From the NCBI GenBank assembly GCA_044226015.1, contig JBGAHS010000005.1, forward strand, positions 192,001-256,000: DNA of 64,000 nt, read 5' to 3'. The first letter of the stretch is position 1. Each line of letters opens with the position of its first letter. Origin of the DNA: Candidatus Obscuribacteraceae bacterium (GTDB lineage: Bacteria > Cyanobacteriota > Vampirovibrionia > Obscuribacterales > Obscuribacteraceae). A program made the position numbers and the translations under genes. The notes below the pieces were generated by a model, which worked only from the letters and a program-made list of their open reading frames with translations, had not been told where the DNA came from and did no database searches. Shown here piece by piece: positions 13,401-42,322 of the stretch.

Positions 13401-14888
13401 TTACGTTGTTTTGATTGCCATTGTATTGATGTGTTTAGGCAGTGTAAAAAAGAAAGTACTGCCACCTTCGGGGTTGTCGATAAAACCGATCTTCCCTTCG
13501 TGAGCTTCGGCTATTTTTCTTGCGATTGGCAGCCCCATACCCTTAGCTATGGTTTCGTCTGAGCCCGGCATTTTTCGAAAGCGTTCAAACAATTGCTTGC
13601 GCATTTCTTCAGGAACACCTGGTCCAGAATCTATCACTCTTACTGTGACTTCCGTATCATTCTCTATCGCCTCAATTTGTACTTCACTGCCTGCTTTTGA
13701 ATGCTGTATGGCGTTACACACAAGTATTCGGATTAATTGAGTTATTCTGTCGGCATCGATGCTTAGTTCAGCATTTGTTTCATTCTCAACGATGCGAAGA
13801 TCTTTAGCCTCTGCCAGTTCCTTCAAGGTAGCCGCTGCCTTGCTGATGCAAAACTCTAAATAAGAAGTCTTTCTGTCCAGGTTTAGTTTTCCTGCTTCCA
13901 TTTTTTCCAGATCCAATAAATCGTTGATTACTGAAAGCAGCTCTTCCAGTGTTTTATCTGATTTCAACAAAGTTTCGTTGCTTCGCTCGTTGATTGGACC
14001 AGCAATTCCCATTGTGAGTATCTCGATTGTTCCCCTGATGGAGTTAAGTGGGGTTCTCAATTCATGACTCACCATTGCAAGAAAAGCCTGCCTTTCCTTT
14101 TGTGCTACTTCTATCGCGTCAGCCATTTCATGCATGGCTAGGTCCAATTTCGCAATCTCATCTGAACCAGCCACAACTGGATTCATCGGTTGTTTTGCTG
14201 TCAACCTTCGGGTGTTGTCGGTCATGGTAATGAGTCGAGAAAGAATAGTACGAATGAAATAAGCACTGAGAACCAAAACTAAAATTATGTTGCAGCTTAC
14301 TCCTACCCAGCAGATTGTTTCCAGGTGTTTTCGTCGGTTTGCTTCGATTTCAGGGTAAGTTTTTAGCAAGCTCTCAGCGTCATTCAGTAAGTTCACCGAA
14401 CAGAATTCCCAGTCTCGACGCAGTTTGAGTACATGGTTGAAGACTGCTCCTACAAACGCCATGGCTTGTGTCTTGCTTTCTATTTTTCGAAGACGTTCTT
14501 TACTTTTGTGGACTATACGAAATACCTTGCCCTGTAGCACCTTCATTTTTTCAATGTGGTTCTTCAAGTTCAAGTCTTTTGTGTTATTGGTCAGCCATGT
14601 GGATGTCTTCTTTATTGCTAGTTCGTAATCGTTCGATTGAGCCTCTATCTCCGGGTCTTGAGACTTAGCCCAATTCTCGACGGATTGCTCGTAATCTGAA
14701 AGCAGGAAGACCAGTTTTTGGCTATTGCGTAGCACATCTTTCAAGTGCGATTCGCGGCTAATCTCCTGCTCGGCTAGAAGGAGTTGCCAGCTCAACAATG
14801 CAACAAAAAATACCTCTCCTAAAACGAGCAGAGCAATCAGCGACATACTTTGCGCTGTAAGAGAGAGTGAAGAGAACTTTCTAAGCAT
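13401..14888 (-). CDS. Membrane sensor histidine kinase (TM-periplasmic-TM-HAMP-HisKA-HATPase) with intact phospho-His
   Basis: H-box VSHELRTPL; N-box RILVCNAIQHS, G1 DSGPG, G2 AKGMGL (somewhat divergent). ATG 14888 overlaps the upstream stop. Confidence 0.9.
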   Translation of the reverse strand: MLRKFSSLSLTAQSMSLIALLVLGEVFFVALLSWQLLLAEQEISRESHLKDVLRNSQKLVFLLSDYEQSVENWAKSQDPEIEAQSNDYELAIKKTSTWLTNNTKDLNLKNHIEKMKVLQGKVFRIVHKSKERLRKIESKTQAMAFVGAVFNHVLKLRRDWEFCSVNLLNDAESLLKTYPEIEANRRKHLETICWVGVSCNIILVLVLSAYFIRTILSRLITMTDNTRRLTAKQPMNPVVAGSDEIAKLDLAMHEMADAIEVAQKERQAFLAMVSHELRTPLNSIRGTIEILTMGIAGPINERSNETLLKSDKTLEELLSVINDLLDLEKMEAGKLNLDRKTSYLEFCISKAAATLKELAEAKDLRIVENETNAELSIDADRITQLIRILVCNAIQHSKAGSEVQIEAIENDTEVTVRVIDSGPGVPEEMRKQLFERFRKMPGSDETIAKGMGLPIARKIAEAHEGKIGFIDNPEGGSTFFFTLPKHINTMAIKTT

Positions 14889-16467
14889 GCTTGTTCTCCT
14901 CAATGGAATCAGGCTTCTTCTCCTCTAAGGAAGCCAGCTTATTCTCCTCGTGGGAGTCATACTTCTCTTCTAAAGAAGCCTTTTCGTTCTTCTCTAAGGA
15001 AGCCAGCTTGCTCTCCTCGATGGAGGGAAGTTCAAACCAAAAGGTGCTTCCTTTACCAGGTTCGCTATCGCAGCCAATTTTTCCTCCATGTTGTTCGATG
15101 ATTCGCTTGCAAATGTTCAGTCCAAGCCCTGTTCCTGCTCCACGTTTGCCATCAGCACTGTTGACTTGTTGGAATTTTTCGAAGATGCTTGCAGCTTGTT
15201 CTTTTGGAACTCCGCGACCCTTATCTACCACCGATACTCTCAAAAAGCTCTCTATCTTATCTGCCTTCAACAGCACCTTTTCTTCTTTAGGAGAAAACTT
15301 GGCCGCATTTGACAAGAAATTCACGAGCACCTGAATTAACCTGTTGCTGTCTGCATAGACAACGTGATTTCTTTCGCATTGAAGTTCAATGGAAATCCCT
15401 TTCTTATTTGCGAAATCAACGACTGAGTCGAGTGCGCGCTGCAGTACTTCGTGGAGTTCGACTTTATCCAAGTGCATTCTTATTTTACTGTCAGCACCCG
15501 TTAGGTCTGCTCCAGTTAAATCATCGACGATTCCGACAAGTCGAATGAGATTTCTTTCTCCGCTTCTGAGAAGGTCGCTTCCTTTCTTTGAGAGGTCTTT
15601 TGATTCTTCTTTAAGCAGCACGTCAAAGTTGTTATAAACGTCTTCCAGTGGTTGCGAGAGCTCGTCCCTGAACATGGCTACGTATGAGCGTCGAAGTGTT
15701 TCGTATTCTCTCATCTGCTGTGCCATCGAATGAAACGACTGATCAAGCTGAGAAATTTCATCACTTCCTTTTAGTACAGGAAGTAGTTCTTGTGATGCTT
15801 TCAAACGGCGGGTATTTTCTAGCAGTATCAAGAGACGATTGCTGATGTCTCGAGAAAACATCAAAGCAAGACCGATAGCGAAAATTATATTGATTACTAG
15901 CGCAACGAATACGATTCCTTGCATGTTCCGTCTGATTGTGTCTTGTGAAGCAGGAAGATTGCTCAAGCGTGCCTCCTGAAGTTTCAGGAAATTGATTGCC
16001 AGTGCTTGTAGATGTCTTTTTTTCTCACGTAACTCGACAATACATGATTGCACCAGGCTTGGCTTCTCCTCTTCATTCGCTTTGTCTACTTCCTCTATCC
16101 AATAATCAATGCGGCTGAAAGTCCATTTTGCGTTTTGATGTAGCTCATTCAATAGCTGCTGCTGTTCATGCTCTCTGTCGATGTTCTTTGATAAGTAGTT
16201 CAGCTCATCCAAAATGCTGTTGAAGATTGAGTGGAGGTTCGATTCATTCACCTTTGTTGGCGAGGTACTCCACGCACCTAAAGCTTCATGACCTGAGTAC
16301 AAACCTCGTGTAATTGCCTGGGTGTGCAAATAGATATCTTTGAAGTGAGCTTCTGCCGCAGCTTCGGTCTCTGCTTTGCTCAACTGCTGCTTAATTAGTA
16401 GTCCCATCGCCAACTCGACGGTAAGGAGCAGGAAGATTATTATTAGTCCTTTCCTGGCGATGCTCAT
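14881..16467 (-). CDS. Membrane sensor histidine-kinase-like protein lacking the phospho-His
   Basis: Same architecture as its neighbour; H-box reads FRDELSQPL (His replaced by Asp); canonical NFLSNAAKFS, DKGRG, FEKF and GTGLGL boxes; repetitive C-terminal tail. Confidence 0.88.
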   Translation of the reverse strand: MSIARKGLIIIFLLLTVELAMGLLIKQQLSKAETEAAAEAHFKDIYLHTQAITRGLYSGHEALGAWSTSPTKVNESNLHSIFNSILDELNYLSKNIDREHEQQQLLNELHQNAKWTFSRIDYWIEEVDKANEEEKPSLVQSCIVELREKKRHLQALAINFLKLQEARLSNLPASQDTIRRNMQGIVFVALVINIIFAIGLALMFSRDISNRLLILLENTRRLKASQELLPVLKGSDEISQLDQSFHSMAQQMREYETLRRSYVAMFRDELSQPLEDVYNNFDVLLKEESKDLSKKGSDLLRSGERNLIRLVGIVDDLTGADLTGADSKIRMHLDKVELHEVLQRALDSVVDFANKKGISIELQCERNHVVYADSNRLIQVLVNFLSNAAKFSPKEEKVLLKADKIESFLRVSVVDKGRGVPKEQAASIFEKFQQVNSADGKRGAGTGLGLNICKRIIEQHGGKIGCDSEPGKGSTFWFELPSIEESKLASLEKNEKASLEEKYDSHEENKLASLEEKKPDSIEENKHA

Positions 16468-16769
16468 GCTTTTACCGTTTGGATCCGCTGTCTTTGCGGA
16501 GAAAGAGACAACTAGAGGTCATGGAGGAAGCCCCAACACGGTACTATATTTTCCCTCAATTAGACAGAGATTCCATCTCAAACTTTCTTTGGTGTTAGTG
16601 CATTGGTTTGCTTAAAGTGCTGCCGCCGTTCAAGAGCTTTGCAGCATTTGCCGTGTTTCATAAACATATTAGCTTGATTACTGCCGCCTACTGCAATACA
16701 ATTCAAGTTTATTATCGGCGATTCCTAATAGCGGTAGAAATAACGACCGGTTCGAGATCGAGGGAAGAT

Positions 16770-17462
16770 ATGGTTAAGGTAGTTTCCAGAATTTTGCTAG
16801 CGAGCACTGCTCTTCTTACTGTTATAGCAATTCCTTGTTTCGTATTCGCTGCTAATGCCGCTTATGATCAGGCGATCGGCGCCTACAAAGCAAGAAACTA
16901 TCGAGGCGCAATTCAGGGTTTTCAGACTGTATTGAAGTCCAATCCATCAGACCCTATGGCGCACTATTACTTGGCGCTCTGTTTTCAGGGAACTAATCAG
17001 ATGGCGTTAGCACGTCAGGAATACACGTGGGTGTCCAGTTGCAACAATGCGCAACTTCGTTCATATGCAGCCTCGGGTCTAGCAAATTTGAGTAAATATC
17101 CCAGCTCATATAGTGGGTCGGGTGGACATTCTTCTTTTTCTAGCAACACTGTTGCGATGGCGGGTGGCTCTCGAATTAACGGAAGGTTGAAGGTCTTAGA
17201 GTTCTACGCAGATTGGTGAGGACCGTGCAAGAAGTTCGGTCCGGACTTCGATTACGTTGCTAGTAAATACCGCAGCCAGGCTGAATTTCAGAAGCTTAAT
17301 GGTGAGGATCCAGCTAATGCTGACCTCATGAGCAAGTACAACGTAACGGGATATCCGCGTCTTGTTTTTACTGATTCGTCTGGAAGGAAACTCGATGAAA
17401 TTCGTGGAGCACCAGATCGAAGCAGTTTTGAAAGCGCTGTAAAACAATTTCTCGTCAAGTAG
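16770..17462 (+). CDS. Exported TPR + thioredoxin-domain protein with in-frame TGA (probable selenocysteine, WUGPC), 230 aa
   Basis: Signal peptide and TPR (AHYYLALCF), then EFYADW-TGA(17217-17219)-GPCKKFGPDFD...YNVTGYPRLVFTD...FLVK-TAG. The post-TGA frame aligns with the paralog at 41615-42322. Confidence 0.85.
17224..17256 (+). promoter_or_regulatory. Candidate bacterial SECIS element
   Basis: Upper stem GAAGUUC (17231-17237)/GGACUUC (17243-17249) with GGUCC loop, starting 11 nt after the UGA; lower stem CGUG/UACG. Confidence 0.65.
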
Positions 17463-17639: not shown

Positions 17640-18197
17640 TTATGGTTTCCAATAAATACCGTTTTCGCGTTTGAGAAGTTGCGCACCGATGAGTTCTCTC
17701 CTCAGCGTTGCGAAGTCTTCGTGATGCTTCCCGATAATCTGGTTGACCTGCTTTTCTGGATATTCCTTTTCGTTTTCAAACTGGCTGGCTAAGAATTTGA
17801 GTATCACTTCTCGTTTCTTTCTGCTAGCCGGAATTTCTTTAAGGCGTTCCCCATCAAAAAAGTCTTTCAAAATCTTCCGTTCCCAGGCATCTGACGCCAC
17901 TTCCTCACTAATGGCTGACATTGTGTCAAGCGTGAGGATGCGTTTTGACAAACCTCGAAGTTCTTCGAAGTTGAGACTATACAAATGCGTCGTACCGCTG
18001 CTGCGCATTGTTACTAGCGATACTTCTTTGAGTTTCGAAAGATGATGAGACACTGTTGGTGCTTTAAGACCAAGCAGCTCTGCTAGCTCATCGACATTCT
18101 TTTCTGATGAACTGAGTGCCCCTACTATTTTGAGCCGACTCTCATCCGATAATGCCTTGAAAAAGGTGATTATCTTGCTTAATTCTGGACTTGCCAT
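17640..18197 (-). CDS. ArsR/SmtB-family HTH regulator fused to DUF2087
   Basis: FKALSDESRLKI..ELAELLGLKAPTVSHHLSKL; C-terminal IPASRKKR..YPEKQVN..HEDFATLRRELI. Confidence 0.9.
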   Translation of the reverse strand: MASPELSKIITFFKALSDESRLKIVGALSSSEKNVDELAELLGLKAPTVSHHLSKLKEVSLVTMRSSGTTHLYSLNFEELRGLSKRILTLDTMSAISEEVASDAWERKILKDFFDGERLKEIPASRKKREVILKFLASQFENEKEYPEKQVNQIIGKHHEDFATLRRELIGAQLLKRENGIYWKP

Positions 18198-41614: not shown

Positions 41615-42322
41615 TCAACGTGGTATCTTCTGCAGTGCGCTATCAATATAGCTCATTAGCCCATCTGCATTGGTGCCACCAGAAAATCTCGTTATTTGCT
41701 TTCCTTTGGAATCAGCAAAAATGGTGGTAGGAAATCCTGTGACACCATATTTTGCTAACAGTTGTTGGTTCTGTGCTTCTTCGCCATCTAGACGTTTGAA
41801 TTCACAGCTTGCGCCATACTTATTGCTGCGTTGCACCTGGTCGAAAACTGGGTCGAATATTTTGCAAACTCTGCACCACTTAGTACTGAATTCGATGATT
41901 TTGATCTTACCCCTGGCGAAGTCACCAGTTTGTGGAACGCGAGCTTGAGTCGCCAGGTTGCTTGTAACACTTGCACTCTGGGCTGGCGGCTTATAGTGTG
42001 CCAGAAAATTTAAACCCTGTTGAGCCTGGGCTTTTAGCTTCGGATTCGTGCTGTTGCTGAGCAACCACTGATATTCCAAGTTAGCTGGACCAACCTTACC
42101 CAAGTTCTGGTAGCAGAGAGCGAGATAGTAGTGGCAAGATGGGTCGCGAGGCAAAGTTCTGGCGACATTCTGAAAGCCTTCCAGCGCTGTCGTGAATTTT
42201 CTTGCTGCAAAATCTTGCTGCGCCTTAGCGTAAACTTGAGCTTCGTTAGCAGCCAGGGAAGGCAAACACATTCCGCCCGCAGCAACTATAGCTAACGAAA
42301 TCAGTATAAGTGGACGCTCCAT
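41615..42322 (-). CDS. Exported TPR + thioredoxin-domain protein (WCRVC)
   Basis: Signal peptide, CHYYLALCY TPR, EFSTKWCRVC, YGVTGFP cis-Pro loop; GGAGG SD. Confidence 0.9.
   Translation of the reverse strand: MERPLILISLAIVAAGGMCLPSLAANEAQVYAKAQQDFAARKFTTALEGFQNVARTLPRDPSCHYYLALCYQNLGKVGPANLEYQWLLSNSTNPKLKAQAQQGLNFLAHYKPPAQSASVTSNLATQARVPQTGDFARGKIKIIEFSTKWCRVCKIFDPVFDQVQRSNKYGASCEFKRLDGEEAQNQQLLAKYGVTGFPTTIFADSKGKQITRFSGGTNADGLMSYIDSALQKIPR

Follow-up and report, generated by a model that had tools for sequence, protein, structure and literature searches.

A predicted exported TPR-thioredoxin selenoprotein with a W-U-G-P-C active site in Obscuribacterales

Introduction

The cytoplasmic chaperedoxin CnoX/YbbN joins an N-terminal thioredoxin domain to a C-terminal tetratricopeptide (TPR) region and has no signal peptide, and some thiol:disulfide interchange, TlpA/ResA-like and DsbG-like proteins have homologues located in the cell envelope. 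Thioredoxins that use selenocysteine (Sec) in a UxxC motif (Trx, PF00085) are an experimentally verified family in Table 1 of PMC13188914, which holds 119 selenoprotein families and also includes thiol:disulfide interchange, TlpA-ResA-like and DsbG-like UxxC selenoproteins. According to the accessible text of PMC3322552, DsbD-class proteins feed periplasmic thioredoxin-like proteins, among them the DsbD/ScsB-fed TlpA of Caulobacter.

The protein described here is encoded in the window, that is, the whole 64,000-nt stretch of Candidatus Obscuribacteraceae DNA that was analysed, and it resembles each of these systems in part. With Sec Trx it shares the thioredoxin fold, predicted Sec in place of the first Cys of UxxC, a putative in-frame downstream SECIS element and Cys homologues; it differs in that the domain lies C-terminal to a predicted signal peptide, a TPR module and a linker, in scoring only 59.5 bits with the canonical stand-alone thioredoxin equivalog TIGR01068 (cut-off 96.8), and in being found in Obscuribacterales. 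It is a thioredoxin-fold UxxC oxidoreductase like the TlpA-ResA-like, DsbG-like and interchange selenoproteins, but has a short classic thioredoxin domain without the TlpA insertion. Like CnoX/YbbN it combines thioredoxin and TPR in one chain, yet the order is reversed, a leader is present, export is predicted, the TPR module is short and the active site has Sec. Selenoprotein families were reportedly also described by Haft and Gwadz in 2025, and those families stand in the review's table. As far as PMC3322552 describes Caulobacter TlpA, the likeness lies in a predicted-exported thioredoxin-fold protein and DsbD-type transporters in the genome, and the difference in Sec, the TPR module and the lack of a conserved link to a dsbD or peroxiredoxin gene.

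In their accessible portions, the early survey PMC1794560 reports the Sec trait as absent from Cyanobacteria, PMC5029168 mentions Cyanobacteria only for orphan SelD, and PMC9529120 notes in passing one Sec residue in a Candidatus Melainabacteria protein, so that Sec in this group is not wholly unseen. The terms TPR, tetratricopeptide, signal peptide and cyanobacter- do not occur in the main text of PMC13188914, as available, and a term search of the available deep-Sep text (PMC12013277) returned no relevant term. Our literature search found no paper joining selenoproteins with Vampirovibrionia, or selenoprotein families with tetratricopeptide, and the records examined among those retrieved for Obscuribacter and selenium held nothing relevant. 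Among the input genomes listed in the available part of BSepDB (PMC13326102), 18 are Vampirovibrionia and none is named Obscuribacter; the database may already hold some of these genes as thioredoxins.

Results

An in-frame TGA occupies the catalytic codon of a TPR-thioredoxin gene

A sequence-only reading had proposed that an open reading frame stops at EFYADW, that its TGA falls on the first Cys of a thioredoxin WCGPC motif, and that 80 further codons complete the fold. Translation, Pfam and a structural model bore this out: the forward frame encodes 149 residues up to EFYADW, the TGA, 80 codons (GPCKKFGPDF...KQFLVK) and a TAG. The features of the gene are as follows.

16760..16764 (+): GAGGG, a purine-rich stretch resembling a ribosome binding site, 5 nt upstream of the ATG (suggested by the sequence)
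16770..17462 (+): full gene, 230 codons plus TAG, with the TGA read as Sec150 (translation, Pfam, AlphaFold mean pLDDT 86.9)
16770..16850 (+): predicted Sec-pathway-type signal peptide, approximately residues 1-27 (heuristic only)
16857..17093 (+): TPR module of five helices, residues 30-108 (Pfam TPR_16, model helices H30-107)
17094..17177 (+): Ser/Gly-rich flexible linker, residues 109-136 (pLDDT below 50 at 115-130, unconserved in the alignment)
17178..17456 (+): thioredoxin domain, residues 137-229 (PF00085, structural searches)
17217..17219 (+): in-frame TGA, codon 150, predicted Sec150 at the nucleophilic position of U-G-P-C (conservation in relatives, independent contigs)
17226..17228 (+): resolving Cys153, shared by all 38 aligned sequences
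17355..17357 (+): Pro196 of the cis-Pro loop (G-Y-P), invariant in 38 of 38 aligned sequences

The read-through product matches Pfam Thioredoxin PF00085 over residues 140-225 with 62.3 bits (cut-off 23.5) and shows the marks of that superfamily, namely the fold, C/UxxC at a helix start and the cis-Pro loop; the Pro196 loop we take to be cis from general thioredoxin fold geometry. TPR_16 matches residues 32-85 at 33 bits, just over its cut-off of 32.7. An AlphaFold model built from a 38-sequence alignment (mean pLDDT 86.9, pTM 0.49) runs from a leader helix through five TPR helices and a disordered linker to a complete thioredoxin domain, and structural searches with it returned thioredoxins and TPR proteins. 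Foldseek and VIA gave thioredoxins as the best matches of the thioredoxin domain (Z up to 15.1), the Salmonella 'putative thioredoxin' chain 3qdn matched this domain only, and the TPR module superimposed on the idealised TPR 1na3 with Z 13.8 and an rmsd of 1.8 over 85 residues. None of the 22 named selenoprotein families listed from NCBIfam release 20.0 reached its cut-off for the read-through protein, the best selenoprotein model being TsoB (32.1 against 805).

The leader has a basic n-region, a hydrophobic core and VFA ahead of the likely cleavage site, with neither a twin-arginine nor a lipobox match in a motif check, and a simple heuristic recognized a basic and hydrophobic leader in 36 of 38 aligned family members. 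The protein is thus in all likelihood exported through a cleavable leader. Within the signal peptide-TPR-thioredoxin architecture of the initial proposal, the last two modules were recovered by Pfam and the model, and the predicted signal peptide by heuristic.

The TGA is a genuine and conserved codon

The codon at 17217-17219 recurs without difference in contigs of three runs (X2, X5 and X7) from three independent sequencing studies other than the possible source X1, which shows that the base is not an assembly error and answers the call for independent data on it. Strain X2 differs at four positions inside the gene, all synonymous, at third codon positions and downstream of the TGA. Both flanks of the UGA are conserved, and three same-genus orthologues are 66-72% identical downstream of the TGA and 52-59% identical across the TPR module. 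Among 26 thioredoxin matches of the window's genome, this gene alone contains an internal stop. When 80,759 TGA windows from the whole genome were compared, ungapped, with the Cys sites of proteins encoded in that genome, the 17217 TGA scored 100 and was the top match among the best 70 that was neither low-complexity nor repeat. The sole internal stop and this score together indicate that the alignment of the TGA with a thioredoxin is not due to chance; a dicodon coding score did not single out the gene (1.1 and 1.4).

A nonsense mutation or sequencing error, leaving a pseudogene or a TPR-only protein, would fit the 149-residue form that stands in protein databases, the stand-alone signal-plus-TPR proteins of the window's genome and the four Cys paralogues that could cover the function. 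However, besides the identical codon in three other studies, TGA stands at the catalytic codon in all 39 genomes, from many genera, whose loci were checked, and the downstream part of the gene is as conserved as, or more than, the upstream part. Of 71 database homologues, named TPR protein, hypothetical, thioredoxin or BamD and none shown with U, 38 are short and 37 of these end exactly at the Sec site. Conservation of the TGA site already refutes a mutation or error, to which we assign a negligible probability.

Hardly more probable is a genome-wide code change or leaky read-through by which the UGA would yield Trp, Cys or another residue. UGA reassignment is known in other bacteria, but 772 of 2853 long ORFs of this genome end in TGA as an ordinary stop, tRNA-Sec is the sole UCA-anticodon tRNA among 72, and the TGA aligns with Cys only.

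The genome encodes the Sec machinery

The window belongs to a genome (G000) of 8.19 Mb in 13 contigs, 92% complete. The search for selA, selB, selC and selD that the sequence-only reading had recommended found all four above curated cut-offs at unlinked loci: profile searches scored SelA at 418 bits, SelB at 329 (cut-off 242) and SelD, which carries Cys and not Sec, at 367 (cut-off 125), and tRNA-Sec (selC), with a UCA anticodon, scored 64.7 (cut-off 47). A TusA-domain gene lies directly after selD (L010:2527-3132) and resembles the selenium metabolism gene yedF. Elsewhere in this genome, 18 tRNA genes are arrayed in ~2.2 kb (contig C10, 356333-358584).

Sec and Cys forms alternate within an Obscuribacterales family

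Homologues of the TPR-thioredoxin occur in 95 of 100 sampled Obscuribacteraceae genomes. An alignment search at E 1e-30 recovered them in 45 of 47 genomes of this family and one of two of the sister family, and in none of 151 genomes from nine other families of the class; by these searches, the exported TPR-thioredoxin family is confined to Obscuribacterales. The closest named database homologues come from Obscuribacteraceae, Obscuribacterales and Melainabacteria MAGs, and the top ESM Atlas cluster is mostly Melainabacteria, in agreement with the proposed origin in a non-photosynthetic relative of cyanobacteria.

A TGA-bearing copy is present in at least 60 of 101 family genomes, that is, at least 60 of the 92 with selA, selB or selC and none of the nine without a sel gene. 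All 60 have one or more of these three genes and 50 have both selA and selC; the other 10 lack a selA or tRNA-Sec match. Family-wide, SelA was detected in 80 of 101 genomes and tRNA-Sec in 84, whereas the SelB search at E 1e-70 (59 of 101) missed divergent SelB, a full-length match being found in four of five re-tested genomes. The 784-residue SelB frame of genus g20 (L269, G086:C1:4017371-4020874) was matched in three pieces, suggesting insertions. Four sel-free genomes that hold the family have 10 copies, none with a stop; the sel-free genomes are few and related, and some are incomplete (58-96%), so that the co-occurrence of sel genes and TGA serves as a consistency check, not a statistic. 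A loose DNA-pattern tally of 81 of 101 genomes was discarded because of chance frames, with five distinct non-family hits (L233-L236 and L164) besides L166 and L172.

The comparison of TGA with Cys homologues, also suggested at the outset, showed TGA kept at the nucleophilic-Cys codon in relatives and Cys in paralogues. In the first 44 loci, TGA sat at the residue-150 position in 12 of 12 TGA-bearing matches, aligned with the catalytic Cys of homologues, and later loci agree. Five TPR-thioredoxins are encoded in the window's genome, a single Sec form and four Cys forms, the nearest Cys paralogue being 48% identical to the Sec protein. One Cys form lies in the window itself.

41615..42322 (-): Cys-form paralogue with signal peptide, TPR and thioredoxin W-C-R-V-C

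On a rapidly built tree of 70 rows, the label switches between Sec and Cys eight times, at least four of the switches being forced by well-supported branches; the tree is unrooted and gives no direction for the changes.

The family also varies in other respects. Among tandem arrays (L149-L153), genus g15 has a pair of Sec copies and G076 the order Sec-Cys-Cys, and Sec variants of ~440 residues in G078 (L147) and G041 (L148) have a long helical N-terminal region with the same thioredoxin domain and hairpin. In Sec copies L241, L246, L247 and L249, Arg, Thr or Gly takes the place of the Trp that precedes U. W-C-x-x-C is absent from 14 of 73 family-like representatives (P0051, P0069, P0072 and P0080 among others), several of which lost both cysteines.

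A candidate SECIS hairpin follows the UGA

Immediately downstream of the TGA, folding and comparison across relatives delineated one further element.

17231..17249 (+): candidate bacterial SECIS, a 7-bp stem with a GGUCC loop that begins 19 nt downstream of the UGA

The bSECIS model, as given in the Fig. 2 legend of PMC13188914, has a 3-9 nt loop starting G(G/U), a 4-16 bp stem, a distance of 16-37 nt from UGA and an MFE of at most -7.5 kcal/mol. The candidate agrees with that legend at -10.1 kcal/mol, as judged by a constrained fold. The hairpin alone is not unusually stable relative to shuffles (z -0.55 to -1.2). Across six same-genus genes all 42 hairpin cells are paired, with one-sided stem changes only, and the F-G-P-(D/N)-F codons are nearly fixed, with variable neighbouring wobble positions. 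In 28 Sec genes of other genera, three of them in a slightly different register, the equivalent hairpin lies 5 nt further downstream with loop CGUGUUU, and four of its seven pairs changed on both sides. These changes are compensatory, fall at wobble positions and yield a covariation score reached by none of 500 shuffles.

All six core pairs are intact in 13 of 13 Sec genes and in 0 of 11 non-Sec genes that share the peptide motif, in a hand-picked set whose pair-count control does not correct for relatedness. Each of the 13 Sec genes has CCC as its Pro codon, a triplet that makes up 15% of Pro codons in the window's genome. Over all fetched genes, a model-like hairpin at -4 kcal/mol or better follows 27 of 37 TGA sites versus 8 of 33 Cys sites (16 and 3, respectively, at -7.5 kcal/mol); the remaining 10 TGA genes fall short of -4 kcal/mol under the hairpin rule used. 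An Rfam search returned nothing relevant, and promoter and terminator scans gave chance-level hits only. Collectively, these data indicate that the gene at 16770-17462 almost certainly encodes a selenoprotein, with Sec insertion predicted from sequence evidence.

Other TGA genes of known selenoprotein families

Heuristic scans of the window's genome, which may have passed over others, uncovered three further genes with a TGA that belong to known selenoprotein families, all likely selenoproteins judging from their sequences.

L157:1498-1962 (G000:C8, TGA at 621180) (-): MsrA with G-U-F-W (TGA scan)
L273:1230-1577 (G000:C1) (-): SelW/Rdx-like C-G-A-U protein (TIGR02174, 62 bits over 34.2)
L274:1277-1636 (G000:C11) (-): ArsC-like U-x-x-C protein (NF041106, 129.8 over 85)

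The Sec MsrA on C8 has a Cys counterpart on C10. Its hairpin scored poorly under the rule used, and a stronger one follows the TGA MsrA forms of G056, G085, G064 and G044. SelW-like homologues occur in 82 of 101 family genomes, with one TGA in most rows listed and Cys only in sel-free G017 and G024; ArsC-like homologues have TGA in many relatives and no stop in six sel-free genomes. In the window's genome, the SelW-like and ArsC-like genes each carry a tight hairpin (-12.6 and -10.9 kcal/mol) ~23 nt downstream of the UGA, with a GGU or GUU loop. The TPR-thioredoxin as the only selenoprotein sustaining the Sec trait was rejected, since TGA genes of the SelW-like family are at least as widespread and those of the ArsC-like family are common. 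No Sec formate dehydrogenase was found in the window's genome; its four molybdopterin matches contain no internal stop, and neither do its 12 AhpC/TSA matches.

Three same-genus genomes encode exported TlpA/ResA-like W-U-G-P-C proteins (L230:1804-2820, L231 and L232), two of them with the same TPR module at the C-terminus, and an apparent Cys counterpart lies on C6 of the window's genome.

SelA and tRNA-Sec in other families of the phylum

Elsewhere in the class, SelA was detected in two of two genomes in each of two families and in 0 of 149 genomes of eight more. A sample of 300 genomes from the phylum contained 23 with SelA, all in five families outside the class. All 27 SelA-positive genomes outside Obscuribacteraceae have tRNA-Sec, and a photosynthetic reaction-centre gene was found in none of the five tested (one per family). 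That oxygenic cyanobacteria lack Sec is taken from the literature and one control genome, oxygenic genomes being unlabelled in the 300-genome sample.

Discussion

We propose that SelB, bound to the hairpin downstream of the UGA, would deliver Sec-tRNA(Sec) made by SelA and SelD, thereby giving a 230-residue precursor. The signal peptide would direct this precursor to export, and processing would leave a soluble envelope protein in which the TPR module is tethered through a flexible linker to the thioredoxin domain. The U150 selenolate would attack a disulfide, or other oxidised sulfur, of a client protein, Cys153 would resolve the mixed bond to yield a selenenylsulfide, and one of the two DsbD-type membrane proteins of the genome (each DsbD_N, DsbD_TM and thioredoxin) would re-reduce it, with the TPR module binding the client or an anchoring partner. 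As a whole, this account of a selenoprotein with SelB-dependent recoding and a DsbD-fed redox role as an exported TPR-thioredoxin is very probable. Its parts differ in strength: a role as envelope reductase or isomerase fed by DsbD, the donor being suggested by co-presence, is reasonably likely, and the chances that the TPR is a docking module are about even. Docking is the best reading of this module since it is reused on other exported proteins of the genome, by eye with apparent aspartic-protease and TlpA-like domains and in stand-alone forms.

Gene neighbourhoods gave no pointer to a client, none being conserved among 33 loci beyond genus-level pairs. The flanking genes, two for sensor histidine kinases that point away from the gene (13401-16467, -) and one for an ArsR-DUF2087 regulator convergent with it (17640-18197, -), are not conserved beside orthologues. 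A gene for a haem-binding and di-haem cytochrome c peroxidase protein adjoins the Sec orthologue in two same-genus genomes (L037 and L038), not in G000.

A disulfide isomerase/chaperone or oxidase acting on many exported Cys-containing proteins, in place of a reductase, is unlikely yet deserves some weight. The PDI-domain and thioredoxin models score nearly alike (52.2 and 59.5 bits, neither reaching its cut-off), there is a likeness to PDI in E-F-Y-A-x-W and in the Y-P cis-Pro loop, TPR beside thioredoxin recalls CnoX, and the representatives devoid of W-C-x-x-C suggest redox-independent roles. On the other hand, G-P is the classic dipeptide of reducing thioredoxins, the top structural matches are plain thioredoxins, and the protein has no dimerisation domain. 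Still less probable is that the UGA also works as a selenium-dependent switch, giving an exported TPR-only protein at low selenium and the full enzyme at high selenium. The stop does fall after a complete TPR module and linker, stand-alone signal-plus-TPR genes occur in the genome, and termination competes with Sec insertion in general, but the truncated product, with a broken first thioredoxin strand, may be degraded, and the UGA position is fixed by catalysis. The DsbD-fed reductase/isomerase role stays our preferred reading.

The suggestion that the architecture is new agrees with its absence from the 119-family table of PMC13188914, and has to be narrowed in that the same table already counts UxxC Sec thioredoxins as a verified class. 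The new elements are the architecture of a TPR-thioredoxin predicted to be exported, the confinement of this architecture to Obscuribacterales and how widely the lineage uses Sec; the UxxC class and its chemistry are known. The finding adds a selenoprotein subfamily that stands cut in two in databases, with short matches named TPR or hypothetical proteins. Furthermore, most members of a large non-photosynthetic family related to cyanobacteria decode Sec, where the early survey of the phylum, in its accessible text, found none.

Only tentatively, and with considerable doubt, we suggest that Obscuribacterales keep Sec for a few redox-repair proteins, not for formate dehydrogenase, including a lineage-specific, client-picking TPR envelope thioredoxin with repeated Sec/Cys switches. 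Equally tentatively, the ancestor of Cyanobacteriota may have had the Sec trait, which would then have been lost towards oxygenic photosynthesis, given selA and tRNA-Sec in several apparently non-photosynthetic families of two classes. Within the family, one predicted exported enzyme exists in Sec and Cys versions that frequently share a genome or stand in tandem, a natural series in which the advantage that selenium gives in the oxidising envelope of the cell is directly testable.
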